From the NCBI RefSeq assembly GCF_030684315.1, contig NC_081385.1, positions 6,126,341-6,190,340 of the forward strand: a DNA stretch of 64,000 bases, in the 5' to 3' direction. The position numbers and the translations under genes are program-made. The stretch comes from Stegostoma tigrinum (taxonomy: Eukaryota). The notes below the pieces were generated by a model, which saw only the letters and a program-made list of their open reading frames with translations, searched no databases and had not been told where the DNA came from. This document shows, piece after piece, positions 2,847-64,000 of the stretch. Within the stretch, counting starts at the first letter, position 1, and each line of letters begins with the position of its first letter.

Positions 2847-4041
2847 AGATAGTAGGAACTGCAGATGCTGGAGAATCTGAGATAACCAGGTGTAGAGCTG
2901 GATGAGCACAGCAGACCAAACAGCATCAGAGGATCAGGAAGGCTGACAATTCAGGCCTATACCCTTCTTGAGTGGTGTTCCACAGGGCTCTGTCCTTGGG
3001 CCTCTACTGTTTGTAATTTTTACTAATGACTTGGATGAGGGGATTGAAGGATGGGTCAGCAAGTTTGCAGACGACAGGAAGGTTGGAGGTGTCATTGACA
3101 GTATAGAGGGCTGTTGTAGGCTGCAGCAGGACATTGACAGGATGCAGAGATGGGCTGAGAGGTGGCAGATGGAGTTCAACCTGGACAAATGCGAGGTGAT
3201 GCATTTTGGAAGGTCGAATTTGAAAGCTGAGTACAGGATTAAGGATAGGATTCTTGGCAGTGTGGAGGAACAGAGGGATCTTGGTGTCCAGATACATAGA
3301 TCCCTTAAAATGGCCACCCAAGTGGACAGGGTTGTTAAGAAAGCATATGGTGTTTTGGCTTTCATTAGCAGGGGGATTGAGTTTAAGAGTCGTGAGATCT
3401 TGTTGCAGCTCTATAAAACTTTGGTTAGACCGCACTTGGAATACTGCGTCCAGTTCTGGTCGCCCTATTACAGGAAAGATGTGGATGCTTTGGAGAGGGT
3501 TCAGAGGAGGTTCACAGGATGCTGCCTGGACTGGAGGGCTTATCTTATGAAGAGAGGTTGACTGAGCTCGGACTTTTTTCATTGGAGAAAAGGAGGAGGA
3601 GAGGGGACCTAATTGAGGTATACAAGATAATGAGAGGCATAGACAGAGTTGATAGCCAGAGACTATTTCCCAGGGCTAAAATGGCTAACACGAGGGGTCA
3701 TAGTTTTAAGCTGGTTGGAGGAAAGTATAGAGGGGATGTCAGAGGCAGGTTCTTTACACAGAGAGTTGTGAGAGCATGGAATGCGTTGCCAGCAGCAGTT
3801 GTGGAAGCAAGGTCATTGGGAACATTTAAGAGACTGCTGGACATGCATATGGTCACAGAAATTTGAGGGTGCATACATGAGGATCAATGGTCGGCACAAC
3901 ATCGTGGGCTGAAGGGCCTGTTCTGTGCTGTACTGTTCTATGTTCTATGTTCGAAGGGTCTAGGCCCAAAACATTAGCCTTCCTGCTCCTCTGATGCTAC
4001 TTGGCCTGCTGTGTTCATCCAGCTCTACACCTTGTTATCTC
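2847..4041. mobile_element. Penelope-like fold-back insertion, family A (arms about 2847-2967 and 3953-4041), with a CR1 in its centre
   Basis: Arms are reverse complements (about 85% identical) and match the termini of the element at 55956-59110. Flanking direct repeat CTTTCTCTGAGG at 2832-2843 and 4041-4052. Confidence 0.85.
2968..3952 (+). mobile_element. Young 5'-truncated CR1 LINE (HER1-like): RT C-terminal region and 3' UTR, one frameshift near 3519
   Basis: SGVPQGSVLGPLLF, FADD, VRPHLEYCVQFWSP, RGDLIEVYKIM; ORF2 stop at 3866; ends in a (TGTTCTA)n tail. Confidence 0.95.
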
Positions 4042-10427: not shown

Positions 10428-30938
<20,511 letters not shown>

Positions 30939-38492: not shown

Positions 38493-41400
38493 AGGAGTTA
38501 TTATTTATAGGCCCCACAGGGACTCTAGTCCCTTTTATTTAACAATATCTACCTGACGCCGCTATGTAGATAATGAAGAGTCTGGGACTTCCCTGATGGT
38601 GAGAAAATGCAAAAATCTGCATTCAACATGCAAGAAAAGCTAGCTCCTGCAATGGATCCAAGTGCCTAAATACGCATAAAGTGTATGAATACTTGAATGT
38701 GTCTTCAAGCTCCAGGAGAGGGACATTTGGAGATGAATGAGGAGTGGAGCTCATTTACTGCTTTTCTATGAAACAATTATTGCTGGAACTATTTTGTGGA
38801 TAGAATCTAACCCCAATACTGTTACTATTAAAGAACTGAAAATCGCTTCATGATTGCCAATGTTCTTGTTTGTACACAATGGAATTATCCAAGCGGAGAC
38901 AGAAAATGATACATGCCACTCTCAGTTCCCAAAACTTTCTGCTGAACTACTTCATGTGAAAATTCTTATTGGCAACACTCTCCTTTAGTAGACCGATCAT
39001 CTTCCTTCACATGTTTGTTGACAATGTTATTCCTATTACTTAGAAAGAAGATTTAACTAACTCTATTACAGGAAGCACTTGATTGCACCACTCCTTGACC
39101 GCACTGACATCACTGCATTCTAAGGTCTTGACCAGAAAGTTCCCAGTCAGTTGCACATCATTTGCAACACCACCCAGCTTGGACTAGAAAAATGACAACC
39201 AGAGTCTTACGCGATCTTTCATGTTCCCAACCGATCAAGCTTCAGATAATTTGCCCCTTGATTAAGTGCCTTTGAAATTCATAGCCAAAAAAAAACAAAG
39301 AGCTAAGTCATATAAAAGTAGCATCCTGAGTAGCATCATCTGTGTTTAATACCATTGGGCATGCAGAGTAATCGGGTGCTATGCAAATGCTCCCAGAGTT
39401 TTATATTGTTTAGAATATATTTATGAACTTCTGAATGATTGCAATGATAAAGCAGTAGTTCTAATCTCATACAGTGCATGTTGGGTCTTGGAAACTGACC
39501 AATTCAATCACATCATGTTCTTCACACCTCAGTGTTGATACTCTGTACAGCACCAGTGCCTTGTGCCCAACTATGGCAAGTTCAGATTGGAAAGAAGTGC
39601 AAGGATTCTCTTCATTGAGGTTCTGACTTTGGTACAAATTTCTGGAGAAACAGTGTATATTTACACCACTTTTTGTACTTTTACAAATCACATGACATTT
39701 TGCATGACTTGTCTCATCAATTTGGTCCCAGGAATAATCAGGAAAGAGGATAAGTAGAGGAATAATTTTCCATGTATCTCTGAATGTCTCATTTCCTTTA
39801 TGCTGTATTTAGAATACAGAAAGAGGCCAATTGATCTCTGCTGGTGATTCTGTCCACGTCAGCCGTTTCCCAGTTTTCTTCATCCAATCCCATTATAGCT
39901 ACTCTTCTCTACTATTATTTTCTACCCCTGTCTACTCATGCAGTGTCCAGCTTCCCCTCAAATGTATTTTCACTTTTCACTTTAACTATTACCTGTGCTA
40001 GTGAGTTCCACATTCTCACTATTCCCTAGGTAACATCTCAGTAAAACTCAGATCTAAAGTCACAACGAGAGGAAATTATCCCTAAGATTCCTCTGGTTGC
40101 TGACTTATTGCAATGAATGATTAAAGGTTTCACTGAAAGTGCTTTTTGAAGATGACCCAACATTTGAACCCTTCCTTTTCCATACAGCTGCGAGCCAGGA
40201 GGCCTCAGGTGAGAGCTTCCGAGCTGAGAAAGGATCAATGATTGTGGCTGCACATAGAGTTTATAGAGTCATAAATGTCTACAGCACAGAAAATGGCCCT
40301 TCAGGCCGTCAAGTCTGTGCCAGTCAAAACCACAGAAGATTCTAATCCCATTCATTCCACTGCTGCAACAGCAGGATGGAGAGACCTTGCATGGCAGGGA
40401 AGGAGAGGCTGCGAGGAATGTATGCATAGGTGCAGGGGTGGGGGGGCTATATTTGTAATGGTTCTATAAAAATCTGCAGTGAATTCTCGAGTCCACGGTC
40501 AAGGTGTGAGCTGTAACACTTGGTTTTTATTAATACCCATTGCTTCTATGCTGATATCAGCTCAGTTAGGGGTACCACCAATGTGGGTGTGCTTTCAGCT
40601 CATAACCCCATACGTTATCTTCTCTAGGTACAGCCTTCAGGCTATTGACATTCCTTCACCATCTCTGGATCAAATTCCTGGAATTCTCTCCCAAACAACA
40701 CCCTACACCCCAAAGACTTCAGTAGTTCAAGAAGGCAGCTCACCATCACCTTCTCCAGGGCCAACAGGAATGGACAATAAATGCTGGTCCAACCCTAAAA
40801 TGAAATATAAGTTACCAACTCCTCAGAATGGATAACCACCATTGGCTGAGGTGGTGTGCAGCCTCATCCATCCACATTTTGTTTCATTTGATTTTAAGGA
40901 ATGGTGGATTTGGACCATCGTCAAAATGTTCTCAAAATGCTTTGTGAAAGTTTGTGGATGGCAAGTTTAATGCAAACTAATCAGAACGTGATTGTTCCTT
41001 CCACTCGGGCACCAGTATCTCAAGGTGAAGTTAAATAAGGATCTCCTTACCCAACAACCCACAGCAGTCTCATCACAGAGGCTAATGCTCTTCTTATTGG
41101 GTCCAAGGTTTTTGTATCCACTAACCTCTGAGAAATCCATTGATGACATTTGACACTGGTCTTCAGCTTGCCTCACCCCTTCAATGTCATTTGTCCAATA
41201 TTTCCTTCTAAGCTGTGAAAATACTTCACCTACATCCTTATGTTTCCAAAAATGCGGAGGCTCAAAAGATCTGAGGAAGATTTTTTTTCTCTCTCGGAAC
41301 CTGATTTGATGTCATTTTGATTAAAGCAAAATCCTGCAGATGCTGGAAATCTGAAACAAACACAGATAATGCTGGAGAGTCTCAGCAGGTCTGGCAGCAT

Positions 41401-42943
41401 CTACAGAGAGAGAGTGAAACAGAGTTAACATTCCGAGTCCTGTATGATATCTCTTCACAATCCCGAAGAAGAGTCATATCAGACTCAACATGTTAACTCT
41501 GTTTCGCGCTCCACACATCCTGCCAAACCTGCTGAGTTTCTCCAGCATTATCTATGTTTACTGATATTGTTTAGCTTTTAATGAAATTCCATTAAATATT
41601 CCACCCCTGGTTTGATACCAGCACACACAGAAGAGCATTAATATTATTCAGTGTCAGCTCTACTGTTGGGTTAAATGGAAGCTGAAACAACAGACAATTG
41701 CTTTCCCCAGTAATCCATTTCCCATTACTAGATTCTTTCTTGTTGGCACTCCTGTTTACTATGTTTGTATTACATCAATAGACTAGGAGGACAAAGGTTG
41801 ACAGCAAAGATCTCAAAGTGACCAGGGGATGAGTAGTAGCAGAGTGGGGCGGAAGGTCCCTTGACATCCGTTAATCCATTGCTCTATTCTGGTACCTAGC
41901 ACTGAAATGGATAATATTGCTACTTCTACTAAGATCCACCAGGCTCAAAATAAACAAAGGAATTGTCATACCAAGCATTCCCACACAACTGCTATCAGTT
42001 CCAGTTTCCCAATATTATCAGGAAACCTCATTCAGACAGTGTGAGGAACCCAGTGAGGATCTCTTTCACCTGTCCTTGTGATAAGCTATGTCTATATCCA
42101 TCCACATTTTCTAAAGTCTGTTCACCCTAAGCAATTGTTTTGCTAGGGTACCCATTAACTGGTTAACTGTTTTCCACAACCAAAGACAGGAAAATTATGG
42201 AAAGTAACCAAGAAACTCAGTAAAAAAAAGACATAAGAACCAAACAGGAGGAAAGAATATCAAAAACAATGAGGGATATATTTTGTCCGATATGTATGGG
42301 CAAAGTTTTTTTAATTTCTGATTTATCTACTTTGACAAGAGAATTAATGTTAACCAATACTTTTTTGGTTGGCTGAGACCTGTGGTACCTATTACATAGG
42401 AAGAACTGGAATAAATCCAAGGTCTAGTGTGAGCAGGCACATAAAGGCTAAAAGAATGTTCATCTTTAGCTCAAAGCAGTCATAGTATAAAGTGAGGTGA
42501 CATTTCATTCGTACAGAACCTTGGTCTCACATAATTTGTCGTAACTATGTTTAGTTCCAATCACTACATCAAGGAAGGACATACAGGTTTTGGAGAAGTG
42601 CAAAGAGATAACACAGCTAAAAGGACTGAAATATTTATGACAAGTTGCATAAATTTGGTTGTGTTCTCTTGGGTTCAGAAGATTAAGAAGTACTGTCATC
42701 AAGGACTTTAAAGGATTTAAGAGAATGGATAGAGGAAACCATGTCCTCCAATGGGGCATCAAGGACAAGGGGCCAGAATCAGACTAGCGCACCTCAGGAC
42801 TGAATTCATGAAACATTTCTCCATGCAAGGGTAGTGGGGATGTGGAACATTCTTCTCGAAATGCCGAGGGTCAATTAAACCTGCCAAGACTGAGAACAAT
42901 ATATTCTGCAATGGAAGGAAATTGAAGGATATGAAGCAAAGGT

Positions 42944-43300
42944 AGCGAGTTTTGAGAAGATTTATAGCTCAGGTTGAGGTTCTGGATGTGAGTTTGCTCG
43001 CTGAGCTGGAAGGTTAGTTTTCAGACGTTTCGTCACCATATTAGGTAACATCATCAGTGAGCCTCCGACGAAGCGCTGGTGTTATGTCCCGCTTTCTATT
43101 TATCTGGTTAGGTTTCCTTGGGTTGGATCACCACATCACCAATGCAGGAAATGACATCACCAACCCAAGGAAACCTAACCAGATAAATAGAAAGCGGGAC
43201 ATAACACCAGCGCTTCGTCGGAGGCTCACTGATGATGTTACCTAGAATGGTGATGAAAGGTCTGAAAACTAGCCTTCCAGCTCAGTGAGCAAACTCACAT
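42944..43300. mobile_element. Penelope-like fold-back insertion, family C (arms 42986-43126 and 43160-43300), inside an old CR1 tail
   Basis: Near-perfect 141-bp inverted arms with a 33-bp spacer; TSD ATGAAGCAAAGGT at 42931-42943 and 43299-43311. A degenerate relative lies at about 43495-43620. Penelope assignment is by architecture, since no ORF is present. Confidence 0.85.
43021..43060 (-). ncRNA. Minimal type I hammerhead ribozyme, family C (mirror copy at 43226-43265 + is mutated)
   Basis: Minus strand TCA-CTGATGA-T-GTTACC-TAATAT-GGTGAC-GAAA-CG-TC-TGA: stem I TCA/TGA, CUGAUGA core, 6-bp stem II, GAAA, GUC cleavage triplet. Confidence 0.75.
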
Positions 43301-45962: not shown

Positions 45963-46050
45963 TCAAGCCTTTGGTGGGGTTTTGAGGTCGGTTTTGGAAC
46001 CATAATGTCCACGTTCAGTGTTGGCACAGGAGTTTACCAGGCACTCCTTC
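45963..46050 (-). CDS. SCN4B: SCN4B last coding exon (KKECLVNSCANTERGHYGSKTDLKTPPKA-stop)
   Basis: Acceptor TCTCTCTAG; KECLV motif. Confidence 0.92.
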
Positions 46051-49000
46051 CTAGAGAGACGACAGCAAGCACCATGAGTAGAAGCACCTACCCACTGGTG
46101 ATACACAGTTAACACTTTGCTTACACAGGGACACAGGAAATGCAAATGCAACCAGTTAAAACACTTTGGTTCTGAATTTCCTCAGAGCTGTCATAACTGT
46201 GCCTTAGCCTGGTCGTAGCTTCACCTGAATGCTGGTAGGAAGTAATGCTTTCCCCAATCTTACAGGAAAAGTACAGCAATGCAGATGAAACAGCTCCCAG
46301 GAAATTCTGAGCCATTTTCAAGACAAAAAGGATTGCATTTTAATAATGTCTTTCAGGATGTCCCACTGTGCTTTACATTCACTGAAATACTTCTAAAAGT
46401 TAAGTTGCTGTTGTGATGTAGGAAAGATGGCAACACCTTCTATGCACAGAAAGTTCTCCCTGGTTACAATAATGATATCATCTTTTTTGTCACATACTGT
46501 TGACTGAGAGATAAATGTTGACCAGAAATCTCCAAAGAACACCCCTGCTCTTCTTCAAAATGGTGTCAGGGGATTTTTTGGGACCTACCCACGAAGTGGA
46601 CAGGACACTGGATTAACACCTCATCCGGAAGACAGCTCCGATGACAACACAGCACTCCCTCAGTACAGGTGTTGTGCTCAGGTCCCTGGAGCAAGACTTG
46701 AGCATATGCCCTCTCAGGCGTGTGTGCTGTCCATTGAGGCATGGGATAGAGGGAGGTTCAAGCAGAACAAAAAGAATGACAATGGAATAAATTTACAACA
46801 GGGATGGAATCATGACTGAGGTATTGGGTGAGAGAGGAGGTCAAAATTCAGATTGACGTGACTTTGGCACAGGAAGATCCCATCATCTGATGAACTATGG
46901 TTGCTTTTGTCAGACACAAAATGGTGTCCGATCAGTAAGCAGGTAAATTATTTACCACAGTATTAGACAAGCCTTAACATTCAAAGAGCATGATCAAAGT
47001 GATTGGGGGAAAGGATGGGGATGAGGGTGCAGGGTGGGGTGGGGTGGGGGTACGGAAGGAGGTGGGGGAGCACAGCAGAGGGTAAGAAAGGTTGCACCAG
47101 AACTAACTCTAACCCTATCACAGGAGCAGAAAATCCAAGACTGACACATTAATCTTAACAGACAAGGAACGTGTCAGCGAGTAATCAGAGCAAGGACTTT
47201 GTTCACAAGTCACAAATCCCTAATGATGGACTGGAAAAAACAACTTAAACACAACAATTGAGATGCTGCCTGATCAGGTAAGGCTTTTGTGCCTGGATTC
47301 TAAAATAATATGGCTCTCAATCTCAACAGGAAGTGTACCACCAATCCTCATTATTCTGTCTGATGGGTAAATACTTGCCAAGTATGGACTATAATTCAAC
47401 ATTAGATAGACGCTTCTACTAAAAAGCCTAAACCTCAGACATGAGTAATCTCTGTAGTGATCATATGAAGAAACTTATTATTCTTACTTGCATAGAATTA
47501 GTGAATTGCAGATTGTTCAGTCCTTGATATCTCTTGAGTAATCAGAGTTAAATTCTCTCTCTACATAGATTGATAGGATGGATGGAAGCTTTTCAGCACA
47601 TCACACCTGTGTTATTGCTAATTCTTACTGACTGAGCTACAGTTGAATGTTACTTTTTAATCAATGTAATGCAGAGCTACGACGATTAAATCATAGGCAC
47701 AAACTAGTGTGTGTTGCGAGGTATATTGGAGCATGTTACAGTTAATCAGCTAGTTCATCTTCTTATCCTACAAACTGACAGGTGCAAACTTTTGCTTTAA
47801 GATGCATTTTTAAAAATAATATAATGTTCCGCATATTTGCATCTTACTTACTTCTTCTTTCCAACTCGCTTAATTATAAACATTACAAGCTTTTTAATAA
47901 TAAATATTAGAATGATGAATCCTATCAACCCTCCGATTACAGACAGGATGATCACTGTCACTGTGTTGTCCACTTCTACCACTGTAATACAAAGGGAAAG
48001 TTTTTCAAATTAGTACAATGAAAATCACCAGTTAGACTCATCACTAAAGAACTAATATTTAGATTAGATTCCCTACAGTGTGGAAACAGGCTCTTCGGCC
48101 CAACAAGTCCACACCACCCCTTGAAGTATCCCACCCAAACCCATGCCCCTATAACCCACACACCCCTGAACACTACTGGCAATTTAGCATGGCCGATCCA
48201 CCTAGCCTGCACATCTTTGGGCTGTGGGAGAAAACCAGAGCTCCCGGAGGAAACCCACGCAGACACGGGGAGAATGTGCAAACTCTACATATAATACGAA
48301 GTGGGATACAGTGAATGTAAATAAGGGAACAATGGGGTACAAGCAGAAATATAAAGATACGCACAGGGATATAGAGAAACAGGTGAACATTGGATATACA
48401 AAAAGAAAGGTTATCAACAGATAGGGGAAATATTATTCCTCGACATCTGGTTTTATCAAAGTTAAAAAAGCAAATCTGAAACAGAAACCCAGTGTTTGTT
48501 TCAGCAGAGGTAGGACAGCCAATCCATTTGCAGGAGGCAGGCTGGTTGTTCACATATTTTCACAAAGTGTTCACTTTGAATATATTTCCTGAAATAACTC
48601 CCCAAAGGCCAGTACCCTGTCACCAAGTCACATTTTATTTACACACGGAGAGTCCTTCATACCGATCCAGCCAGCCCAGAGCAGGTTCCGAAAATGAACA
48701 GAACCTTTGACATTCATGTTTATATGTGTTAGCCAGGGCTCCCAGATTGGACCAGATTAACAGCCCCAAACAGGGAACTCATATTCGCTGAGGTCCATCT
48801 GGCAGACCTCATTATAAGCACTACAATTCCATTTTTAACAACCGTTTGCCAAGCTTCAGGTAACAAATGAAAAGAGCAGAGCCATGTAAATGAGCTAATG
48901 GACAACCCGTTCCCGACACAGTGGTAGCGTCCCTACCCCAGGACCAGGAGGCCCAGGTTCAAGTCTCATTTTGCTCTGTAAAATCTCTGAACAGGTCGAT

Positions 49001-52000
49001 TAGAAAAAAAAGGATGAATTAGTTAATTAATTAGTTAATTAGTTTAATTAGCCGTAAAGCACTGCTCGTGGGTCGTAAGGAACTGCAATCCTTCCACCAG
49101 GTTGAGAAAGTAGTCGTGAATCATGTCTTCATGATTGTGATCTGTCTGTTTATCCTTTCACAACTCCCTGGCAACCGGACCCCACTTGCCAACAGACCCA
49201 TCACTCATGCCCTCCCACTGATTGGATCTACCTGCTGTAAGGTCAGTTATAGCCTTGTGCTGTCTGTCCTCCTGTCTGATAGGCAGGGGGAGTCCTGTAA
49301 GTCTCAGCTCCCTGTTTCTCCTTCACTCCACATTTTGAAGATCCCCAAGGATAAGTTTGTGGACAGGAAAAGAGAGGGATAAGACACACAAAGGAGGGGA
49401 TAGAGTGACACAACAGGACAGACAGACATAGGGATAGAAATGTAAATGGAGACAAAGATAAGCAAGGGGATAAAGAGACAGATAGAGAGAGATGGGTTTA
49501 GAGATATAGAGAAGGAGGTGGAAATACACCAGCAGGAATAGAGAAGCACACACAGACAGTTAAAGACACAGGTATATAAAGAGACAAGAATGAACAGAGG
49601 CACCAGGCGAAGAGAGGGGTTTGGACTATGGGATATTGTGGCTATGCCGTGGGAAATAAAATTTTCACAAGTAACCTATATCTCTAAATGAATCCCTATT
49701 TGTAAATGTGTAACATTGTCAGATCTAATCAAAGCCTCTCAATAAAGTGGTATTTTAGAAACATTGTCACTCTGTATAAAGAGATAATGGGAACTGCAGA
49801 TGCTGGAGAATCCGAGATAACAAAGTGTGGAACTGGATGAACACAGCAGGCCAAGCAGCATCTTAGGAGCACAAAAGCTGACGTTTCGGGCCTAGACTCT
49901 TCATTAGAGAGGGGGATGGGGAGAGGGTTCTGGAATAAATAGGGAGAGAGGGGGCACTGCAACTCTTTTGTAATCTCCTCTCCTCTCCACCTATCTTCTC
50001 CTCTGTCCATCTTCGGTCCGCCTCCCCCTCTCTCCCTATTTATTTCAGAACCCTCTCCCCATCCCCCTCTCTGATGAAGGGTCTAGGCCCGAAACGTCAG
50101 CTTTTGTGTCCCTCTTCACTCAGTATAAAACCAGCTTAGCACTGAGAGACCTCACTACTTGTTTCTGAACACACTTTAATGAGATAGTTAAGAAGCATAA
50201 ACCAGAAATTGACAGAAGTATTTATGTGTAGATATTTGGCCGGGGGAGGGGGGGTATTAGTTTTTTGGATAATTCAGATGGAGTCCAGTTAATCATTCAC
50301 ATATGAATACAAATGATCCAGAAGTGGCTGTGTTAGGCAAACAGAATTTCACCCCATTGCATATTTACATAGATGTTTGGACCAAGGAGCCCCAGTGCAG
50401 TTAGTCACAGCAGGAAGAATTGCAGCTTGAAGTGTCACATGTTAAAACACAGGAGGGAGGAGCCCAAGGAGATCAAGTGGAACGTTAAGGTTAATGAGCA
50501 GCTGAGTAAATTCTTGGGGGAGGTCACTGAAGGAGTTAAACTATGAAGGTCCATTGTTCCAGATACTGGATGCCATTACAACTTCCCACTATAAAAAAGT
50601 GTGGGTTGAGCACAAAGCTACAAAATTATGATGCTGATTCTCTATTTGCATCCCAAGTTTTCTCGTAAGCACCAGTGTGTCTCAGGAGAAGGAGCGGAAT
50701 GGGAGGAATTGCATAGAGATTTAAAGCTCAAAAACAAGCAATTCAATCCACAGCACAGCCTCCTCCCACACTGCTTCAACTTCCTGGTCATTGTAACCTT
50801 CTGCCCATTTTGCTCATCCACTTACTCATCTGGTTTCCAATAAGTGTATAATATTGACCGACTGGTGGTGAGCTCTACTCCCTAGGAAAAGAGGTTTCTC
50901 TGGAAATTGCCTCAGAGCTAATGGTGACCCTCACATTTATAAGCCACCAACGCTTAGTTCAAGAGATGCATTAGCCTCTTGATTCATTTCCTGTGGGTTT
51001 TTGAAGTGACAAGTATAGAATCCATATTCCTCAAAATCCACGTCTGCAAACAAAAGGGAAATATTCTTCTCTTTAATATTCCCAATAAATGTAACTCTGT
51101 CATATTCCTCTGATGGAAAGATTTGGGGTCTCTTATCTTTCAGTTTAATATGAATAATCTGTGCAAGAACTTTCTCTAGCTCACTTGGCTGGATGCATGG
51201 ATTATGATGCAGGTTGATACCAACAGTGTGGGTGTAAAGGCCACATTGGCTGCGGTTATCCTGCCTTCTCAACCTTGCCCCTGGCCTGTGGTGTCGTGAC
51301 CCTCAGGTTAAACCACCACCAATTGTCTCTCTGTCTAATGAGAAACTGGGACTATGGTGACTTATAACTACGCTTGATGCAAGGACAAATGAGCAAGTGT
51401 GGTTATTGCCAAGAATCCATTCTGGTAGCTCCAACTAGCCAGGAATTTTAAATTGTAAATCTTGCATTGCAAAGTATCAAGAGAGAAAAAACAGAACACT
51501 CACGTTCACTGACAACACTTAGTTCAAGAGATGCATTAGCCTCTTTATTCATTTCCTGTGGGTTTTTGAAGTGACAAGTATAAAATCCATTGTCCTCAAA
51601 ATCCACGTCTGCAAGCAAAAGGGAAATATTCTTCTCTTTAATATTCCCAATAAATGTAACTCTGTCATACTCCTCTGATGGAAAGATTTGGGGTCTCTTA
51701 TCTTTCAGTTTAATATGAATAATCTGTGCAAGTAAAAAAAAATCAGAATTAGAAAAAACCTTTTGAGCGAAGAATGTTTTATTTCCCACCATTCACCTGC
51801 CACCACACCCAATCCTAATGACTAAAGTTGTTTGCAAACTCAGGATTTCCCAAAGCCTTCCAAAGCCAATTAAATGTGCTTCTGATCTTGTGATCACTGT
51901 TACATCAGAAATACAGCAACCAATGTGTTCACAGCAAGGTCCACCAATCAGCAAGGTGGTAACAATGAGATAACATGCTTTGGTGATGTTTGTTGAGATG

Positions 52001-54992
52001 TGGCCATAGGACATCAGAAATAACTCCCATTTTACTTTGGTGTAACATCTTACATCACAGCAATGAAGGGGTGGTACAGTGGTTAGCCAGGGACCCGGGG
52101 TTGATTCCACCCTTGAGTGACTGTCTGTGTGTTGCCTGTTCTCCCTGTGTCTGCATGGGTTTCCTCCAGGTGCTCCAGTTTCCTCCCACAGTCGAAAGAT
52201 GTGCAGGTCAGGTTGATTGGCCATGCTAAATTGCCTGTAGTGTGCAGGTCAGATGGGTTAGCCATGGGAAATGCAGGGTTACGGGGATAGGATGGGATGT
52301 TATTTGGACGGTCAGTGTAGACTAAATGGGCTGAATGGCCTGCTTCCATACTGTAAGGATTCTATTCTGTATGGAAAGTCCATATTCTCCTCTGCTTTTT
52401 CTATTAAAGGCTGTGGATGGCACTTGAGGGGGCAGCGGACAGAAAAGGTCACACTCACTGGCCACACAATTCATAGGATGAAGGGTGGTGGGGTGTTCTC
52501 CTTCTGTACACCCTTGTTGAGGTGCCCTCATGGTTACTAACCTGCCTCAGCAATGCCTAACTCTCTGAGGTGCAGTTGAGGCTACACAGTTGGTACAGCT
52601 CTCATTGAACTGGTGCCATTGAAAGCCCATAAACACAAAGTCAACCACCAAGGGACTCAATCTACCCTTAGGGAGTCCCTTTCGGTGCAGGTTAAGGACA
52701 GGCTTGAAGATCTTCATCCAACAACCCGCCACAGCTCCACCAAGCATGAGAGAACATTTCTGATCTGGGAAAATCCTGGTCTTTGTTGTTCTTTCCCCAC
52801 AGATAACTCCTCAGTGAAGGGGCGACCTCACTCAGTGACACTCACGAGGCTATCTGACTGCTGAGGTAAAGATAACCTACAGCCTACCCAACATCCATCA
52901 AAAGGCATGGAAGGAATGGGGAGGAGTGAAAGGGAAGGTGAGATCTTCAGCGAATTTTGAACAGATTGTCAGAAGCAATGACTTTGTATTAAAAAAGAAC
53001 AAACTGATTTTCAAATGTTCAAATAAAAATAAGGAGGGTTAACCAGATTATTAACCAAATTGTAGGGAGAACGTTCAGCATTCTTTGAGTTTTTAAAAGC
53101 AAATTTACTGTAACGTGGTTACAGTGACACGAAGTAAAATTGCTCCTAAATTAAAACCAATCCTTTCAGCAGTGATGTTATGAAATATTTCTTCACACTA
53201 TCAAGTTCAGAATTTTATTTCCACTAAAGGCAACTGATGCTTGATGAATTGCTAATTTTGACTATGAGATTGATAAATCTTTAGCTGAGTTATTGAGGAA
53301 TTTAGGGGAAAGGTAAGTATATGGAGTTATGTCACAGAGAAGCCCTAATCCCACTGACAGACACAACAAGCTCAGAGAGCTAGGGCAGAAATTGCTGCAA
53401 AAGCTCAGCAGGCCTGGCAGCATCTATGAAGAAAACAATCTGAGTTAATGTTTTGGGTCTGGGTCCCTTCCTCAAAACTAAGGGAGGGTCACCAGACCCA
53501 AAACGTTAACTCTGATTTTTTCTTTACAGATGCTGCCAGGCCTGCTGAGCTTTTCCAGCAATTTCTGTTTTGTTCCTGATTTACAGCATCCGCAGTTCTT
53601 TTGGTTTTTATCATTATCAGAGAGCTAAATGGCTTCCTCCTATCTTTGACTAGATTTATTTCTCTAATATTGATGTTTGTTTCAACTGAACTTGCTTATC
53701 TCAATTCAGATCTAAGCCTGTTGGAGAAACAGAAAAGACACAGTTTTCTTGTGGATAAAGTTTATTGACTACTCAGTGACATAACTCATGCCACACCCAG
53801 TACTCTCTGTTCTATCCTTTATAATTGCGTTGTCACTTAATTTTCAATTAACCACAGCCAGCACCTTAACTCTTGCTAGAAAGGCACACAAAATACAATT
53901 AGTCAGTGCATAGGCATCAATGGGATAGAGTGTGCAGTGAGCTTTGAATTAGCTAGCAACTGAGATGAGTCTCACATCCTTATCTCCACCAAGTTCAATC
54001 CCTCCTAATCACCTCCAAAACTGGCAAATGTGCTTTTCTCAGGTTGTTTATTGTATTGAGGAACCAGATAAAAGGCCTAGGATCACGTAGGCCAGGGAAC
54101 AATTACCCAAGGTGGAATGGGTTCAGTCATAAAGGTGGTAATAGCACAGGCCAGCCCCAGGCTTGAATTTCACCACAGCAGTTGAAGAAATTTGGATTCA
54201 ATAAAATCTGGAATAAACAGTTAGCCTAATGGTGATGATGTAGCCATTATCGTAAAAACCCTTCTGGTTGACCATTGTCCTTGAGGGAAGGAAATTTACC
54301 ACTCTGACTTACATGTGACTCCATACCCATAGCAATGTAGTTGACTCTTAACTGCCCTCTCGGCAATTGAGGATGGAAAATAACTGCTGGCCTAGCAAGC
54401 AACACCCAAATCCCAAAAATGTTCTTTTCTTTAATAAAAGGTGGAGGAGTGAAATGAGTCAGAAGTAAATAGTCAGTAACACCAAGCAGCAGATTTAAGA
54501 AAGGGAGATGTGGGAGGTAGTAAGGACATCCATAAGATACATTTGAGGAGTGGTCTTAATTTGAATACAGTGAGGATGTGGAGGGAAGGAGAGCAGGGTA
54601 GGAGTCGGACTCCAAAAGGCAGACTTGCAAATGAAATATGTGACACAGAGTTTGGGGCATGCAGTGTGGACCCCTCAACATGAGACTGAGGATATTGCTA
54701 AGAGCATCACCTCTAAGAAATACCCGCTAGAATTTGAGGGTGGAGGCACGTTTCTTGGTGGAGAATGGGAGTTGCTGGGGAGTGAAAAGGGAACATGGAT
54801 TTGCATGGCTCACTTTCGTTTCTTCACTTGTTTTGTTTTTCCGGAATGTCCACCAGAAGTCGGAGTTTTTGAAGTCCATGCAACTAGAGAAGGTACAGGG
54901 TAACTCGACATCAGAGCCATTCAGTGCCACAATCGTTGGCAATTTTCCAATGTGAACTTCTATAGCTTCATTATTTTGAAATACAACAAAAC
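45963..54992 (-). CDS. SCN4B: Sodium channel beta-4 subunit, 5' partial: complement(join(45963-46050,47852-47981,51504-51723,54814-54992)); exon 1 not located
   Basis: LNGSDVELPCTFSSC, NISLLL, DNGFYTCHFKNP, EVDNTVTVIILSVIGGLIG, KKLVMFIIK, KKECLV all align with human SCN4B. GT-AG sites and phases 1-0-1-2 are consistent. Confidence 0.95.
47852..47981 (-). CDS. SCN4B: SCN4B transmembrane exon
   Basis: LVEVDNTVTVIILSVIGGLIGFIILIFIIKKLVMFIIKRVGKK; ATTACAG and GTAAGT. Confidence 0.95.
48590..48825 (-). mobile_element. Probable solo LTR (236 bp) in SCN4B intron 3, same strand as the gene
   Basis: Minus strand begins TGTAGT and ends TTTCA, with CCAAT, TATAAA and AATAAA in LTR order. Flanks TTTCC and ATTCC are a possible 5-bp TSD with one mismatch. 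Confidence 0.6.
49360..49615. repeat. GA-rich low-complexity tract
   Basis: Degenerate (GA/GACA/GATA)n. Confidence 0.7.
49781..50115. mobile_element. Penelope-like fold-back insertion, family A, short
   Basis: Inverted arms matching the 55956 and 59110 termini; TSD TCACTC(T/A)GTATAAA at 49767-49780 and 50116-50129; hammerhead core at 50071-50098. Confidence 0.88.
50937..51167 (-). pseudogene. SCN4B: Duplicate of SCN4B exon 3 (pseudo-exon or alternative terminal exon)
   Basis: 50948-51167 matches 51513-51732 with 7 substitutions in 220 bp and no indels. Acceptor CTTGCACAG is kept, the donor is lost, and the frame ends VGGL-TAA. Confidence 0.9.
51504..51723 (-). CDS. SCN4B: SCN4B exon 3 (second half of the Ig V-set domain)
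   Basis: IIHIKLKDKRPQIF...NISLLLADVDFEDNGFYTCHFKNPQE...LELSVVSE; T-rich acceptor and GTGAGT donor. Confidence 0.95.
53383..53616. mobile_element. Family B Penelope-like fold-back insertion in an old CR1 tail
   Basis: Inverted arms about 85 bp; TSD TCAGAGAGCTA at 53372-53382 and 53617-53627. Confidence 0.85.
54814..54992 (-). CDS. SCN4B: SCN4B exon 2 (end of signal peptide and first half of the Ig domain)
   Basis: GFVVFQNNEAIEVHIGKLPTIVALNGSDVELPCTFSSCMDFKNSDFWWTFRKNKTSEETK; retains the second Cys of CTFSSC. Confidence 0.95.
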
Positions 54993-57437
54993 CTGCCGAG
55001 AAAGATAGTAGGTTAAAAAAAAATACATGACCCTTGATTAAGAGTTCAGATTTCTCTCGCTCTCTATATTCCCGCTGCTATCTAAAGGGATCCATGCCCT
55101 CACTGGGAGTTCCACAGCAGCCAGACTGGCGAATCTTCCAATCTTACCATTCCTCACCGGCATGCTCAGTGGCTGTTAGGAAGACTCATGGAAGTTACAG
55201 AAATTGAGGAGGATGGGATCATCCATCCGAGGTAAATCACTGACTTCCAGATGTATCCAAACTGTAAAATCAGGGGATGTCTTCAACACATGAGAAATGG
55301 CAATCCACAATGACTTTATTTGGCTGCAGTGTATTTACCTAACTACATATTGTGACAATAGGTTTTAGATCTTCATTTATGTCTATGTTACCTGGAAGAC
55401 ATAGCTATTCTATTATTCTACTGGACAGCCTCATATGTTGGTAAACTCATGATTATCCAAAGCTATTATTCCATAATTCACACTAATTCCCAACCAACCA
55501 TCATCCATCACTGATATAGGTCCTAGTCCTGCCATGGCTCACTTCTCCCTGTCTCTGGAATCTTCTCCAACCCCAAACCCCTCTGATATCTGTTCCTGTG
55601 TGTCCAGGGTAAGGATTATCATTATACAACTGTACAGGGTTTCTGTGTGTGCAGGGTAAGGGTTACGCAGTGTGTAACTGTATACTCACTAGTTATCAAA
55701 AACAAAGTCACACCCGCATTGCAAAAGAGCTTTAATTGATCAAATATGCTTCACAGCTAAACTAGTGCATTTGAAATGTGATTATTATTGTAATGTAGAA
55801 AATGGAGAGATCTACTTGCACACAGCAAGTTCACACAAGCAGTGGTGTTTATTGACCAATTAACTTACATAGCTACATAACAACGTAAAGGCTTCAGATC
55901 TAATAATTACCTGGAAAGCAGCACTTTTGACAGTGCCGAACTCTTTCACTCCTGTGATAATGGGAACTGCAGATGCTGGAGAATCTAAGATAATACAATG
56001 TGAGGCTGGATGAACACAGCAGGCCAAGCAGCATCTCAGGAGCACAAAAGCTGATGTTTCGGGCCTGGACCCTTCATCAGAGAGGGGGATAGGGTGAGGG
56101 TTCTGGAATAAATAGGGAGAGAGGGGGAGGTGGACCGAAGATGGAGAGAAAAGAAGATAGGTGGAGAGGAGAGTATAGGTGGGGAGGTAGGGAGGGGATA
56201 GGTCAGTCCAGGGAAGACGGACAGGTCAAGGAGGTGGGATGAGGTTAGTAGGTAGGGGATGGAGGTGCGGCTTGGGGTGGGAGGAAGGGATGGGTGAGAG
56301 GAAGAACAGGTTAGAGAGGCAGAGACAGGTTGGACTGGTTTTGGGATGCAGTGGGTGGAGTGGAGGAGCTGGGCTGGTTGTGTGGTGCAGTGGGAGGAGG
56401 GGACGAACTGGGCTGGTTTAGGGATGCAGTAGGGGAAGGGGAGATTTTGAAGCTGGTGAAGTCCACATTGATACCATTAGGCTGCAGGGTTCCCAGGCGG
56501 AATATGAGTTGCTGATCCTGCAACCTTCGGGTGGCATCATTGTGGCACTGCAGGAGGCCCATGATGGACATGTCATCTAAAGAATGGAAGGGGGAGTGGA
56601 AATGGTTTGCGACTGGGAGGTGCAGTAGTTTGTTGCGAACTGAGCGGAGGTGTTCTGCAAAGCGGTCTCCAAGCCTCCGCTTGGTTTCCCCAATGTAGAG
56701 GAAGCCACACCGGGTACAGTGGATGCAGTATACCACATTGGCAGATGTGCAGGTGAACCTCTGCTTAATGTGGAATGTCATCTTGGGGCCTGGGATAGGG
56801 GTGAGGGGGGAGGTGTGGGGGCAAGTGTGGCATTTCTTGCGGTTGCAGGGGAAGGTGCCGGTGTGGTGGGGTTGGAGGGCAGTGTGGAGCGAACAAGGGA
56901 GTCACGGAGAGAGCGGTCTCTCCGGAAAGCAGACAGGTGTGGGGATGGAAAAATGTCTTGGGTGGTGGGGTCGGATTGTAGATGGCGGAAGTGTTGGAGG
57001 ATGATGTGTTGTATCCAGAGGTTGGTGGGGTGGTGTGTGAGAACGAGGGGGATCCTCTTTGGCCGGTTGTGGCGGGGGCGGGGTGTGAGAGACGTGTTGC
57101 AGGAAATACGGGAGACGCGGTCGAGGGCATTCTCGATCACTGTGGGGGGAAAGTTGCGGTCCTTTAAGAATTTGTACATCTGGGATGTGCGGGAGTGGAA
57201 TGTCTTGTCATGGGAGCAGATGCTGCGGAGGCGGAGGAATTGGGAATAGGGGATGGAATTTTTGCAGGAGGGTGGGTGGGAGGAGGTGTATTCTAGGTAG
57301 CTGTGGGAGTCGGTGGGCTTGAAATGGATATCAGTTACAAGCTGGTTGCCTGAGATGGAGACTGAGAGGTCCAGGAAGATGAGGGATGTGCTGGAGATGG
57401 CCCAGGTGAACTGAAGGTTGGGGTGGAAGGTGTTGGG

Positions 57438-58793
57438 ACCCTCAACAACTTCTCTTTTGACTCCTCCCACTTCCTACAGACTAAGGGGGTGGCCATGGGC
57501 ACCCGCATGGGCCCCAGCTATGCCTGCCTCTTTGTAGGTTACGTGGAAGAGTCCCTCTTCCGCACCTACACAGGCCCCAAACCCCACCTCTTCCTCCGGT
57601 ACATTGATGACTGTATCGGCGCCGCCTCTTGCTCCCCAGAGGAGCTCGAACAGTTCATCCACTTCACCAACACCTTCCACCCCAACCTTCAGTTCACCTG
57701 GGCCATCTCCAGCACATCCCTCATCTTCCTGGACCTCTCAGTCTCCATCTCAGGCAACCAGCTTGTAACTGATATCCATTTCAAGCCCACCGACTCCCAC
57801 AGCTACCTAGAATACACCTCCTCCCACCCACCCTCCTGCAAAAATTCCATCCCCTATTCCCAATTCCTCCGCCTCCGCCGCATCTGCTCCCACGACAAGA
57901 CATTCCACTCCCGCACATCCCAGATGTCCAAATTCTTCAAGGACCGCAACTTTCCCCCCACAGTGATCGAGAATGCCCTCGACCGCGTCTCCCGTATTTC
58001 CCGCAACACGTCTCTCACACCCCGCCCCCGCCACAACCGGCCAAAGAGGATCCCCCTCGTTCTCACACACCACCCCACCAACCTCCGGATACAACGCATC
58101 ATCCTCCGACACTTCCGCCATCTACAATCCGACCCCACCACCCAAGACATTTTTCCATCCCCACCCCTGTCTGCTTTCCGGAGAGACCACTCTCTCCGTG
58201 ACTCCCTTGTTCGCTCCACACTGCTCTCCAACCCCACCACACCCGGCATCTTCCCCTGCAACCGCAGGAAATGCCACACTTGCCCCCACACCTCCCCCCT
58301 CACCCCTATCCCAGGCCCCAAGATGACATTCCACATTAAGCAGAGGTTCACCTGCACATCTGCCAATGTGGTATACTGCATCCACTGTACCCGGTGTGGC
58401 TTCCTCTACATTGGGGAAACCAAGCGGAGGCTTGGAGACCGCTTTGCAGAACACCTCCGCTAAGTTCGCAACAAACTACTGCACCTCCCAGTCGCAAACC
58501 ATTTCCACTCCCCCTTCCATTCTTTAGATGACATGTCCATCATGGGCCTCCTGCAGTGCCACAATGATGCCACCCGAAGGTTGCAGGAACAGCAACTCAT
58601 ATTCCGCCTGGGAACCCTGCAGCCTAATGGTATCAATGTGGACTTCACCAGCTTCAAAATCTCCCCTTCCCCTACTGCATCCCTAAACCAGCCCAGTTCG
58701 TCCCCTCCCCCCACTGCACCACACAACCAGCCCAGCTCCTCCACTCCACCCACTGCATCCCAAAACCAGTCCAACCTGTCTCCGCCTCCCTAA
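57438..58793 (+). pseudogene. 5'-truncated Penelope RT and GIY-YIG ORF with a premature TAA at 58461-58463
   Basis: ORFs 57423-58463 and 58533-58793 are in the same frame; the mirror arm has TCA at the stop position. Confidence 0.92.
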
Positions 58794-59015
58794 CCTGTTC
58801 TTCCTCTCACCCATCCCTTCCTCCCACCCCAAGCCGCACCCCCATCTACCTACTAACCTCATCCCACCTCCTTGACCTGTCCGTCTTCCCTGGACTGACC
58901 TATCCCCTCCCTACCTCCCCACCTATACTCTCTCCACCTATCTTCTTTACTCTCCATCTTCGGTCCGCCTCCCCCTCTCTCCCTATTTATTCCAGAACCC
59001 TCACCCCACCCCCCT

Positions 59016-59047
59016 CTCTGATGAAGGGTCTAGGCCCGAAACGTCAG
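59016..59047 (+). ncRNA. Minimal hammerhead-ribozyme motif in the Penelope terminal repeat, family A
   Basis: CT-CTGATGA-A-GGGT-CTAG-GCCC-GAAA-CG-TC-AG. Identical core at 50071-50098; mirror copies near 56051-56080 and 49878-49907 carry point changes. Confidence 0.7.
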
Positions 59048-60659
59048 CTTTTGTGCTCCTGAGATGCTGCTTGGCCTGCTGTGTTCATCCAGCCTCACAT
59101 TTTATTATCTTTCACTCCTGTACTGGGAGTACCAACCAGGATTTTTGCAGGCAGGTTCTGGAGTGAGATTATGAACCTGCAGCCTTCTGAATTTGAGGCA
59201 ATAGTGCTACCCACACAACCGTAATGCACAGCATTATCTGCTTGCAAATAAACACGGTTGTTGTTGAGCTCAACTGCTGGCATATTTCTGAAACTGACTT
59301 ATTTATTTCTGAGGATCAGACTGGACTTGGATTTGTTTGCATATACCCAATGCTCATTTATAGCATAGGGATCTGAAGGAGTCCTGATCGAGGGAATGGA
59401 ACAGAAAAGCACTTGATGATTTGACTCTCATTTCACTTCCAAGTGTTACATTTGCCCAAACTGCAAACATGGTTTCCTAGCCAGTACACAAAAAAGTTCC
59501 TAATGGCATTAGGTTAAGAGATCAGAGACAAAAGAGTTGTGAAAATCTGAACCTCCCTCTCCCAAAAATCTGCTGAATTTAGGGGAGAATTTTAAAACTG
59601 AGATTGAAAATTCTTTTTAAGTCAACGGTTGCATCATCAAGGCAGGTAAATGGATTATCTTATTGATCAGGAATGATCTGACTGAATGCTGGAACAGTTT
59701 CTAGGGGCTGAATGGCCTCTTCCTGTTTGTTTTATGTTCCTTCTTAGAAGTAGAAATACCAGTTGTGAGTCCCTGATCATCTGAGAATAGCTCCCCCCCC
59801 CAACATCTACCCATGGGTGATTTATAAGTCAGTCTCACCTTTATTCATTTTTATAGATTTCTGTCGGCTCTAACAATAAATTCACTGCCATTATGCCCGT
59901 GGAAATTGCTGACAAAGCCAAAATTCCCACATTTTTCTTGCTAATTTAATGCTTCCCTGCCAACTGAACCATTTTCACTGAGAGGGTCGTGGCTATGGCT
60001 GTATGTAAGGCATTTCTTACACAGCGAAAGAAAGAAAGCATTTGCATTTGTACCTATCATCATACAGCAATCCAAAATGCCTTACTAACACTAAAATACT
60101 CTTCTAAAATGTCGTCACTGTTATAATGTAGGAAACAGGCAGCCATTTGTGCACAGAAAGATCCCACAACCCTTACATGATGATGACCAGATAGCTCTGT
60201 GTTTTATTTCATAATATGGCTGAAAATAAGTAATAGCCAAGCACTCAGGTAAATTCTTTTGCTCCTTTCTTGGAAGGTAGAGGTAAAGTTACCATAGTCC
60301 CAGAGGACTTTCAGGCTGTTCTCTCATTAGAGAGAGATAACTGGTGGTTAGTTTAACCCGATGATCACCATGACCCAGGTGAGAGGTGAGGTTGAGAAGG
60401 CAGGTCCTTCATGGCAGCCTCAAGTAATGCAGGAATGTAATAATGTTGTGGGAATAGCATGGCCATTCTCATGGGATCATACTTTACAATGTCCCAGAAT
60501 TCACCATCACCAGCCATAGGTAAGTCCTGTCTCACTGATAGGTCAGACTTATCAGAAATGCTGGTACAATGGTGCACTGTTGGGCAGGAGTTGAGCTCGG
60601 AGTCATCAGACTCCATGAAGTCTCATGGTAACAAGGAAACCTTGTGCTGATTATGACCT

Positions 60660-63093
60660 ACTAACTTCCCTCAGTTGATGAATCAGTTTTCTTTCATATT
60701 GAGCACCACTTGGAGGACACATTAAGGAATAACAAGAGCACATAATATATTCTGCATGGAGGGTTCAAAGTCCATCCCAGAGAGTGAAATGGTAGCACCA
60801 CAACTGACCAACGCAGCTGAGTTCTAAAGGATATACCCTCCAGACTGGCACTGTGACTTGTGGTATGGGAACCAACACAACAGAAATACCCATTTGACCT
60901 GCTCCTCACCAATCTTACCTATGACTGTACCTGTAACAATGACTACTGTACAGTCCTTATGAAGACAAAGTCCAGCCTTCACCTTGACAATGCTACCTAT
61001 CAAGTTGTGTGCATCATTACTGTGCTGAATTATAGAATCCCTACAGTGTGTAAACAGGTCCTTCGGCCCTACAAGTCCACACCAACCCTCAGAGCATCCC
61101 ACCCAGACCCATTCCCCTAAAGCCCACCTAATCTACACATCCCTGAACACTTCGGGCAATTTTGCATGGCCAATCCACCTAACCTGCATATCTTTGGGCT
61201 GTGGGAGGAAATCGGAGCACCCGGAGGAAACCCGCACAGGCACAGAGAGAATGTACAAACTCCGCACAGTCGCCAGAGGGTGGAATCAAACCCTAGTCCC
61301 TGGTGCTGTGAAGCAGCAGTGCTAACTTCTGAGCCATTGTTCCACCCTTAAACATTACTCAGATTGCTGGATTAATTATCTAGCAACAATACCACTATGC
61401 TGAGAGGGCAAGATTTTGAAAAAATCTAGTAACTCAATGCTATGCATCCATGAGGCGCTGTAGGCCATCAGCAGCAGAACAATTCTCAACCACAGTCATT
61501 AATCTCATGTCCCTGTACATCCATTGGTCTACCACTGCCATCAAGCCAGGGGGATGGAACCTGGTACAATGAAGAGCACAGAAGGGCATGTCTGACAGAA
61601 TGGCATAAGAGAGCCCTGTAGATTAGTGTAAAAGAAAAGGCTGAACCATTTGCAAACACATCCAACCAGAAATGATAACTGAACGATCCATCCCAGTTTC
61701 TTCCTGAGATCCCCAGCAATACAGATGTCAATCTTCAGCCAACTCAATTCAGTCCACATGATATCGAGGAATGTTTGAAAGCAGTGGATATTGCAAAGAC
61801 CTTGGGCTCTGGCACCATTCCAGGAATAGTACTGAGCCCACTTGGTGCCAGAACTAGCTACATCCTTATTTGAGCTGTTCCAGCACAACTACAACACTAA
61901 CATCTAAGTCGATACGTGAAAACTTCCTAGATATGCCTTGACCAAAACACACAGGCCTAATCCAACCCAGCTAATTAGTCTACTGTTAATAAACAGCAAA
62001 TACTATCCAGCAGTCCTTACTTAACAGTGACTATTCACTGAAGACTCACTCAAATCCTGTCGTCACAACAGTTTTGGTCCAAATGTGGACTAAAGAGCTA
62101 AACTCAAGAGAGGATGTATGCCCTTGACATCAAGGTGAAACTGGAGTCAGTGGGAATTAGGAGAAAAGCTCTTTGCTGATTGGAGTCTTACTTAGCACAA
62201 ATGAAGATGGTTGTGCTTGCTGGTTGTCAATCATCTCAGCCCCAGAACATCACTCAAGGAGTTCTTCAAGACAGTGGCCTAGACCCAACTATCTTCAATT
62301 GCTTTGTCTCTTTGCCTTCTCTCCTCTATAAGGATATTCACTGATGTCTGCACAATGTTCAGCACAATTACAATTCCTCACGTCTGAAGTAGTTTATACC
62401 TAAATGCAGCAAGACCTGAACAACATCCAGGCTTGAGGTGATGAGTGACAAATAACATTCACACCACACAAGAGCCGGGAAACAAGAGAAAATCCAATCA
62501 TTGTCCTTTCATATTTAATGGCTTTACAATCACGTCAAGATCCTGAGGGTTTGCAGTGACCAGAAATTGAATTGAACCAACAATGCAGATCCTGTAACTA
62601 TGACAGAATGTCATAGGGTAAGCATTCTACTGCAAATAACTCACCTCCTGTCTTCTCAAAGCCTGTCCACCATCCACAAGAAATGAGTCAAGAGTTTAAT
62701 GGAATATTCCCCACTTGCCTGGATGAGTGCACCTCTAACAACAGCAAGATTAATACTAAACAGAGCAAAACAGCTTGCTTGATTGTTCCCCTACTCACAA
62801 CCTTCAAAGGTCACTCCCAAAACCACTGACAGAGTGGCAGCCATGAACAACGAGCACAACAAATACATGGAAACACCATCCCCTGCACATTCCCCTCCAA
62901 GCCACTCACAACCCTGACTTGGAAATATGATGCTGTTCCTTTACAGTCGCGGGGTCAAAATCCTGGAAGTCCATTGTCGGCCAATGTATATCCTGAGGAC
63001 AGCAGCGTTTTATAAGGTGACGGTGGGGTAATTAGGGATAGGCAATAAATATCTGGCCAACAACACGCACATCCTCTTAATGAATAAATAAAA
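60660..63093 (+). mobile_element. Long decayed copy of the second LINE family, interrupted by SINE insertions near 61033-61400
   Basis: RT-region remnants (GCCCTTGACATCAAGG, GGAGTTCTTCAAGACAGTGGCCTAGACCCAAC, ATGGAATATTCCCCACTTGCCTGGATG) and the same 3' tail as 43652. Confidence 0.8.
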
Positions 63094-63382
63094 GGAATTA
63101 TTTCTGTCCATCTAAGAGGACCAGTAGAGTTTTGAAATAACTCATTGGGAAGACAAACATAATATGGGTAGAGATAATGACGGAGTAACTTTCATTGAAC
63201 ACAAAGGTTTGTTGAAGGAGTTATGTACTAATTATAGAACGATTCAGAACAGAAACTATCCATTTAGATCATTGAGTCTGTGCCAGGTTTTTGAGAGAGC
63301 TGTCCAATCAGATACACTGTTACAATCCCAACAGAATTCCACTGTCACCAAGAGGAAGAAAACTGCTGGTCGGGAATTCACT

Positions 63383-64000
63383 TATAGAGTCGTCAAGTTA
63401 TACAGCACCAAAACAGACCTTTCGGTCAATTCATCCATGCCGACCAATTACACAAATTAATCTAGTCCCATTTGCCAGCATTTGGCCCATATCCCTCTAA
63501 ACCCTTCCTATTCATGTGCCCATCCAGATGCCTTTTAAATGTAGTAATTGTACCAGCCCCCACCACTTCGTCTGGCGGCTCGTTCCATACATGCACAACC
63601 CTCTGTGTGAAAAAGTTGCCCCTTACGTCCCTTTTAAATCTTTCCCCTCTCACCTTAAACTGAGGTCCTCGATTTTTGGATGCTCCTACCGAGAAAAGTC
63701 CTTGACTATTCACCCTATCCATGCCCCTCATGATTTTATAAACCTCTATAAGACCATCCCTGAGCCTCTGACACTCCAGGGAAAATAGCCCCAACCCATT
63801 CAGCTTCTCCCTAAAGCTCAAACCCTCCCATCCCAGCAACATCGTAAAGCTTTTCTGAACCCTTTCAAGTTTCACAACATCCTTCCCATTGCAGGGAGAC
63901 CAGAATTGAATACAACATTCCAAAAGTGCCTCAACCAATGTCCTGAACAGCTGCAGCATGACATCCTGCCTCCCATATTCAATGCAATGATTCATAAAGG
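63383..64000 (-). mobile_element. CR1 LINE 3' region running off the window end
   Basis: LECCIQFWSP, LIEVYKIMRGMDRV, RGNFFTQRVVHVWN, FKRHLD. Confidence 0.95.

Follow-up and report, generated by a model that had tools for sequence, protein, structure and literature searches.

Among described Penelope-like elements (PLEs), those treated by Arkhipova et al. (2013, PMC3846280) come closest to the insertion reported here. The typical Penelope insert described there is completed by an adjacent inverted pseudo-long terminal repeat (pLTR), has an optional tail of 31 bp and a target-site duplication (TSD) of 9-10 bp, and the head-to-head arrangement is the most frequent one. Craig et al. (2021, PMC8557442) describe an inverted 5'-truncated copy that often flanks the unit and a tail of 30-40 bp that is often found at one end only, and a curation guide (PMC8969392) lists both the inverted copy and the one-sided tail. 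Frangieh et al. (2024, PMC11167929) studied PAc, the Poseidon element of Anolis carolinensis, in vitro; they reported that reverse transcriptase (RT) starts at two sites, one at either end of the tail, and that both target strands are cut and extended, and they predicted a dimer. The subject of this work is a 3.15-kb PLE palindrome at 55942-59121 of a 64,000-nt stretch of the zebra shark Stegostoma tigrinum (contig NC_081385.1, 6,126,341 to 6,190,340), which lies close to the gene SCN4B; "the window" means this whole stretch.

The palindrome is an ordinary PLE insertion of standard, already described layout, with longer arms. Like the canonical endonuclease-positive (EN+) Penelope/Poseidon elements of Arkhipova et al. 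and Craig et al., it has RT followed by a C-terminal GIY-YIG domain in one open reading frame (ORF), an inverted 5'-truncated copy placed head to head, a tail of the 30-40 nt class at one end and a TSD of the 9-14 nt class around the unit; a candidate for the hammerhead-like pLTR motif was picked out by eye. Unlike them, both copies are truncated inside RT, no direct pLTR stands upstream and the junction holds no palindrome; in the rotifer examples the pLTRs measure about 0.2 kb, whereas the arms here reach 1.45 kb. As in PAc, where two RT starts bound the tail, the insertion ends at two modal positions, but its right end is identical to the target over 3-4 nt whereas initiation by PAc was reported as non-homologous. 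The work on PAc was done in vitro and stops short of the resolution step. Rearranged Drosophila Penelope copies (PMC3681739) have similarly long inverted arms able to form double-stranded RNA; small RNAs were demonstrated there and are conjectural here, and the shark copy would be transcribed from a host intron. The novelty implied by the first-pass annotation of the window has to be given up, since the layout is typical in these papers and recurs in the same window. We found no publication on shark PLE palindromes or on arm-to-arm template tests, in a search that left most subscription papers and supplements uncovered, and a keyword search of a retrozyme preprint (10.64898/2026.07.22.740005) gave nothing relevant.

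With good confidence we read the palindrome as a dead head-to-head pair of 5'-truncated PLE copies with a one-sided tail and a TSD, likely made in a single event in which RT was primed from both nicks of a staggered cut. The parts of the insertion are given below together with evidence from contigs of four of 19 runs, compared over 54700-57666 (left flank, left arm and centre). X1 and X2 come from the window's organism (organism A), X8 and X9 are from two studies of a related species (organism B) with a flank divergence of about 7%, and contig depths were not taken as copy numbers. None of the 19 listed runs is an RNA run, from which nothing follows for expression.

55942..55955, + strand: left TSD copy, host target sequence, exact repeat; organism B contigs align up to 55955 and then diverge
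55956..55986, - strand: one-sided PLE tail of 31 nt; 55956 is a modal family 3' end (669 loose-ended contigs in X1, 610 in X2)
55987..57436, - strand: left arm, PLE copy truncated at its 5' side and running from the end of RT through thumb, GIY-YIG and 3' region to the pLTR, with a frameshift near 56860
56053..56080, - strand: left pLTR, candidate minimal hammerhead-like core (identified by eye)
57437..57437, no strand: extra base at the head-to-head junction, matching neither upstream sequence
57438..57666, + strand: 5' portion found in the right copy only (the "spacer"); the YIDD codons of RT are at 57600-57611
57667..59111, + strand: right arm, same PLE 3' part without tail, premature stop at 58461-58463; its end is the second modal family 3' end
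59018..59045, + strand: right pLTR, candidate minimal hammerhead-like core (identified by eye)
59108..59121, + strand: right TSD copy, its first 3-4 nt common with the element end

The two arms are 97.7% identical over 1451 columns (BLAST), differing by 26 substitutions and 3 indels, and the copies are oriented head to head with their 3' ends facing outward. The innermost 212 nt of the arms are identical. Translated from the + strand, the 230-nt centre (57437-57666) gives RT sequence whose frame continues into the right arm. At the junction there is neither microhomology nor a palindrome, only the one extra base, recognised as such because both the upstream sequence of the family and that of the right arm itself differ from it; the start of the right copy was put at 57438 because loose ends there show the family's upstream sequence. 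Each arm has sequence of its own, a 31-nt tail on the left copy and a 229-nt head on the right one, so neither is a plain copy of the other. Both copies are dead, being truncated within RT and having broken ORFs. In each arm the element ORF ends in three tandem repeats of 39 nt (56331-56447 and 58662-58778).

The 14-nt direct repeat around the unit is exact and far beyond chance at both boundaries; as its right copy shares its first nucleotides with the element's own end, the true stagger was 10-14 nt. The tail is found on the left side only and reaches 31 nt past the end of the right copy. Loose ends of other family copies peak at 55956 and again at 55988, the place paired with the right-arm end (402 contigs, listed for X2 only), so the two outer ends of the insertion are the two commonest 3' ends of the family, 32 nt apart. 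The first-pass annotation had described this palindrome as a Penelope insertion made at once, with a perfect TSD, arms around a YIDD-bearing centre and a 3' part duplicated rather than merely inverted. All of this held, the 3' 1.45 kb being present twice, although the one-sided tail had been overlooked in its layout of arms and TSD.

Both modal 3' ends (55956 and 55988) stop at the same short motif, TTATC when read in the sense of the element, so RT initiation may follow a sequence cue. Short family copies show a strong 5'-end peak at 56081, where the hammerhead-like core has its upstream edge; organism A contributes 596 and 582 contigs to this peak and one run of organism B contributes 84. 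Contigs that connect a tail end with a core end on opposite strands occur at places 55956/55989 and 55954/55991 (40 and 45 contigs, plus 11 and 14) and are confined to organism A. These are tail-to-tail junctions elsewhere in the genome and could be tandem palindrome units, insertions into the end of an older copy, or circles.

The identity of the element rests on its domains and on its relatives. RVT_1 was matched with an E-value of 0.017 and GIY-YIG with 0.018 and 0.0006; as the ORFs are fragmentary, none of these matches reaches its curated cut-off. Matches to RT proteins of 800-900 residues had full coverage (down to E 1e-125). The best relatives are a PLE protein of Stegostoma tigrinum (96% identity) and one of Rhincodon typus (87%). 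Domain order and similarity would place it in the EN+ Penelope/Poseidon-type clade. The candidate hammerhead can be seen to have the core boxes and a stem II of 4 bp; its folding z-scores lie close to 0, there is no Rfam match at the gathering score, and an Rfam search of the whole window returned 0 matches. A metagenome scan gave 24 distant PLE loci (24-56% identity), none of which was used as evidence.

That the insertion was a single event is supported by the one TSD around the whole unit, by rare variants common to both arms and by the contigs of organism B. Among the 38 arm rows listed in the variant table, six (56361, 56588, 56829, 57063, 57090 and 57379) are positions at which about 95-99.8% of the family depth differs from the allele common to both arms. 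At seven others the left arm alone departs, one is at an indel, and at 24 the arms agree while the family is polymorphic or differs mainly in organism B. The shared variants look inherited from the source rather than spread by conversion, because one of them is also carried by another genomic copy (P0125) and none of the six is CpG decay. Sharing of six family-rare variants points to one source lineage for both arms. Clustering of the arm differences, a sign of gene conversion, was not significant (p 0.16-0.28).

In both runs of organism B a long contig aligns to exactly 55955 and continues with 1044 or 659 nt unlike the element, as would be expected from an empty site. X1 and X2 each gave one contig without differences that reaches 55974, 19 nt into the tail and under the 31-nt bridging rule, and is unbranched at the TSD. 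Two samples of organism A, one of which may be the source of the assembly, thus support the left junction, and in neither does an empty or deleted allele branch off at it. With an arm divergence of 1.8% against a flank divergence of 6.9% between organisms A and B, the insertion would fall roughly in the last fifth to quarter of the time since their split, if the arms were identical at birth; a keyword search of PMC10620051 gave no divergence date, and the age is relative only.

We propose that the GIY-YIG endonuclease would have nicked both strands 10-14 nt apart. One 3'-OH may then have primed at the tail start site, giving about 1.48 kb of complementary DNA (cDNA), and the other about 32 nt upstream, giving about 1.67 kb; the two truncated cDNA ends would have been joined without microhomology and with one extra base, and host repair would have filled in the rest. 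Double priming is proposed on the grounds of the two RT start sites, the cutting and extension of both strands and the predicted dimer of PMC11167929.

Several points weigh against this reading. The joining of two cDNAs goes beyond what experiments, those of PMC11167929 included, have demonstrated. Among the contigs listed the central junction is unbridged, and the range compared stops at 57666, short of the right junction; that organism B has an empty site is inferred from the point at which its contigs part from the element. The variant table lists 40 of its 206 rows, and some differences in X1 and X2 are uncounted. A later recombinational flip of the centre inside the 212-nt identical inner stretch is possible and would weaken the argument from unique sequence. 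Finally, the arms have decayed unequally. The variant table shows departures of the left arm only, and other differences were polarised by homologous proteins, other window copies and CpG context. This gave 18 left-derived and 3 right-derived substitutions and 5 unpolarised ones (p=0.0015), with CpG-type changes 8 to 0 on the left. A single template would give equal decay and does not predict such a skew.

The skew could be explained by two sister templates, by unequal methylation or by chance. It falls to p=0.076 if all five unpolarised substitutions are assigned to the right arm, and without the CpG-type changes it loses significance (10 to 3, p=0.09; 10 to 8, p=0.81). Two of the 18 left-derived calls (57210 and 56321) rest mainly on CpG context or a single homologue. 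Position 58189 was considered as CpG decay of the right arm and rejected once the family allele was known.

What survives best beside a single template is a variant of double priming in which two RNAs were used, sister units of one master lineage (for example neighbours in a tandem-array transcript, or two RNAs held by a dimer), one of them already decayed. We regard this as a tentative possibility. It would reconcile the six rare variants common to the arms with the unequal decay, and the changes of the left arm look like neutral ageing, because 13 of its 14 in-frame substitutions alter a residue and a frameshift is added. Moreover, PLE transcripts carry several tandem copies and the protein is a predicted dimer (PMC11167929). 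The pattern was noticed after the fact at a single locus, however, with the statistical limits just given, and unequal methylation after insertion would produce the same. The host transcript would be rich in G across the right arm (skew +0.53) and rich in C across the left one (-0.53), and it is speculative that this strand skew was the source of unequal methylation.

Less probable, and in our opinion rather doubtful, is an origin by fold-back or self-priming, in which one cDNA is copied back on itself or an antisense template primes itself, as in the model of Arkhipova et al. (2013). This explains directly the head-to-head geometry and the rare variants common to the arms. The basis of the model was palindromes found at the inverted junction (PMC3846280), whereas the junction here has no palindrome and no microhomology. 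With sequence peculiar to each arm, a self-copy would require the centre to have flipped later, and the small pair at 49783-50108 shows the same polarity as the palindrome (a tail-less arm with the longer 5' end). The asymmetric decay is not predicted either.

L1 twin priming, as reportedly described by Ostertag and Kazazian in 2001, is one event in which both target strands prime and which leaves one TSD and an inverted 5' part, and it is said to invert without duplicating. An inversion of this type does not fit, as the 3' 1.45 kb is present twice and both primers start at the 3' end of the element.

Regarding the host gene, the following parts of SCN4B were located in the window.

54814..54992, - strand: SCN4B exon 2, acceptor AG at 54994-54993
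51504..51723, - strand: SCN4B exon 3, 97% identical to whale shark SCN4B
about 47851..47982, - strand: SCN4B exon 4, approximate limits
about 45966..46052, - strand: coding part of SCN4B exon 5, approximate limits

The element lies 963 nt upstream of the exon 2 acceptor, in agreement with the distance of about 1 kb given in the first-pass annotation. The 29 N-terminal residues of two shark SCN4B orthologues had no match in 54994-55955 or in 59122-64000 (the ungapped scores were 25 and 31 at best; such a search would overlook a very short exon). Exon 1 is therefore likely beyond the window, and the element is likely a passenger in SCN4B intron 1. The first-pass annotation had placed it inside this intron; its position upstream of exon 2 stands, no sign of exon 1 appeared between exon 2 and the element, and as exon 1 was not located in the window, intron 1 itself is only likely. 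A partial duplicate of exon 3 is found at 50948-51167 (- strand), 565 nt downstream of the real exon and 97% identical to it. It keeps the acceptor AG and an open frame, lacks the last bases of the exon and the donor, and agrees with the whale shark at one residue where the real exon differs.

Could the palindrome be functional, its intronic duplex regulating splicing, editing or small-RNA output of SCN4B, or the site fragile? We consider this improbable. The arms are able to pair over 1.45 kb, with perfect runs of up to 212 nt, less than 1 kb from the acceptor, and a long pre-mRNA duplex would plausibly form if the intron is transcribed through the element; in Drosophila, long inverted Penelope copies had matching small interfering RNAs (PMC3681739). 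On the other hand, the acceptor is outside the duplex, the insertion is young and lineage-specific and its decay looks neutral. A cruciform or a fragile site, as suggested in the first-pass annotation, is unlikely given the 230-nt spacer and the 2% divergence. In yeast, breakage is down by 80% already at a 9-bp spacer (PMC8053094), and instability is reduced the further apart and the more divergent the repeats are, save in long stretches of single-stranded DNA (PMC10164571), where widely spaced repeats such as these may possibly fold back. X1 and X2 showed no deleted or empty allele at the left junction.

Two independent insertions at one site, homogenised later by gene conversion between the arms, are very unlikely considering the shared rare variants and the unclustered differences. 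A PLE endonuclease is able to cut its own pLTR (PMC11167929) and the innermost 212 nt are identical, but a single TSD encloses the whole unit, and the six shared variants, none of CpG type and one present in another genomic copy, do not look like products of conversion. Weakest of all is an assembly artefact from a fold-back chimeric read: inverted PLE structures are known to trouble assemblies (PMC8557442) and the centre is unbridged among the contigs listed, but the 26 substitutions and 3 indels between the arms bear a CpG signature, the family typically has such a tail and TSD, and the left junction was seen in two samples, so that we give it hardly any credit.

The same layout was surveyed in the window with four pLTR queries taken from the window itself. 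After merging, 25 hits to PLE ends were obtained, forming nine head-to-head pairs and seven single ends. Five of the nine pairs have a TSD of 11-15 nt with at most one mismatch at their borders.

2848-4040: head-to-head pair with TSD, split by a later long interspersed element (LINE) fragment of roughly 1 kb
42944-43300: head-to-head pair with TSD
49783-50108: head-to-head pair with TSD
53386-53617: head-to-head pair with TSD
55942-59121: the 3.15-kb SCN4B palindrome, with TSD
12155-12340: head-to-head pair without clear TSD
14854-15067: head-to-head pair without clear TSD
15959-16207: head-to-head pair without clear TSD
41322-41559: head-to-head pair without clear TSD

In all five TSD-bearing pairs one arm extends further 3' than the other, and the palindrome is the longest case of a routine layout in the window. 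The eight further insertions are small and belong to at least three families, four of them with a clear TSD. Two runs of N (assembly gaps) lie near the window start, at 293-599 and 700-845. At the insertion site, where the first-pass annotation saw a DeuSINE-like element resume on the far side, the left flank is modestly repeated, the right flank matches heads of short interspersed elements (SINEs) elsewhere in the window weakly (E 0.04 and 0.11), and no host-repeat copy in the window spans both flanks; DeuSINE is therefore a tentative label.

The structure itself is of little weight, and its value is that of a data point on PLE integration. Its ends coincide with the start sites known in vitro, and the number of variants in its long arms is sufficient for asking if a single RNA template was used or two. 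What deserves to be taken further is that the arms, for all their common rare variants, have decayed unequally. It is conceivable, though we would not lean on it, that head-to-head PLE insertions in general are built from two RNA templates, one for each nick (tail site and core site), the arms being sisters and not twins at birth. As shark genomes are rich in copies of this PLE family, the template question could be answered by computation, and if two templates are indeed used, comparisons of arm pairs across shark genomes would be a natural read-out of the PLE integration step.

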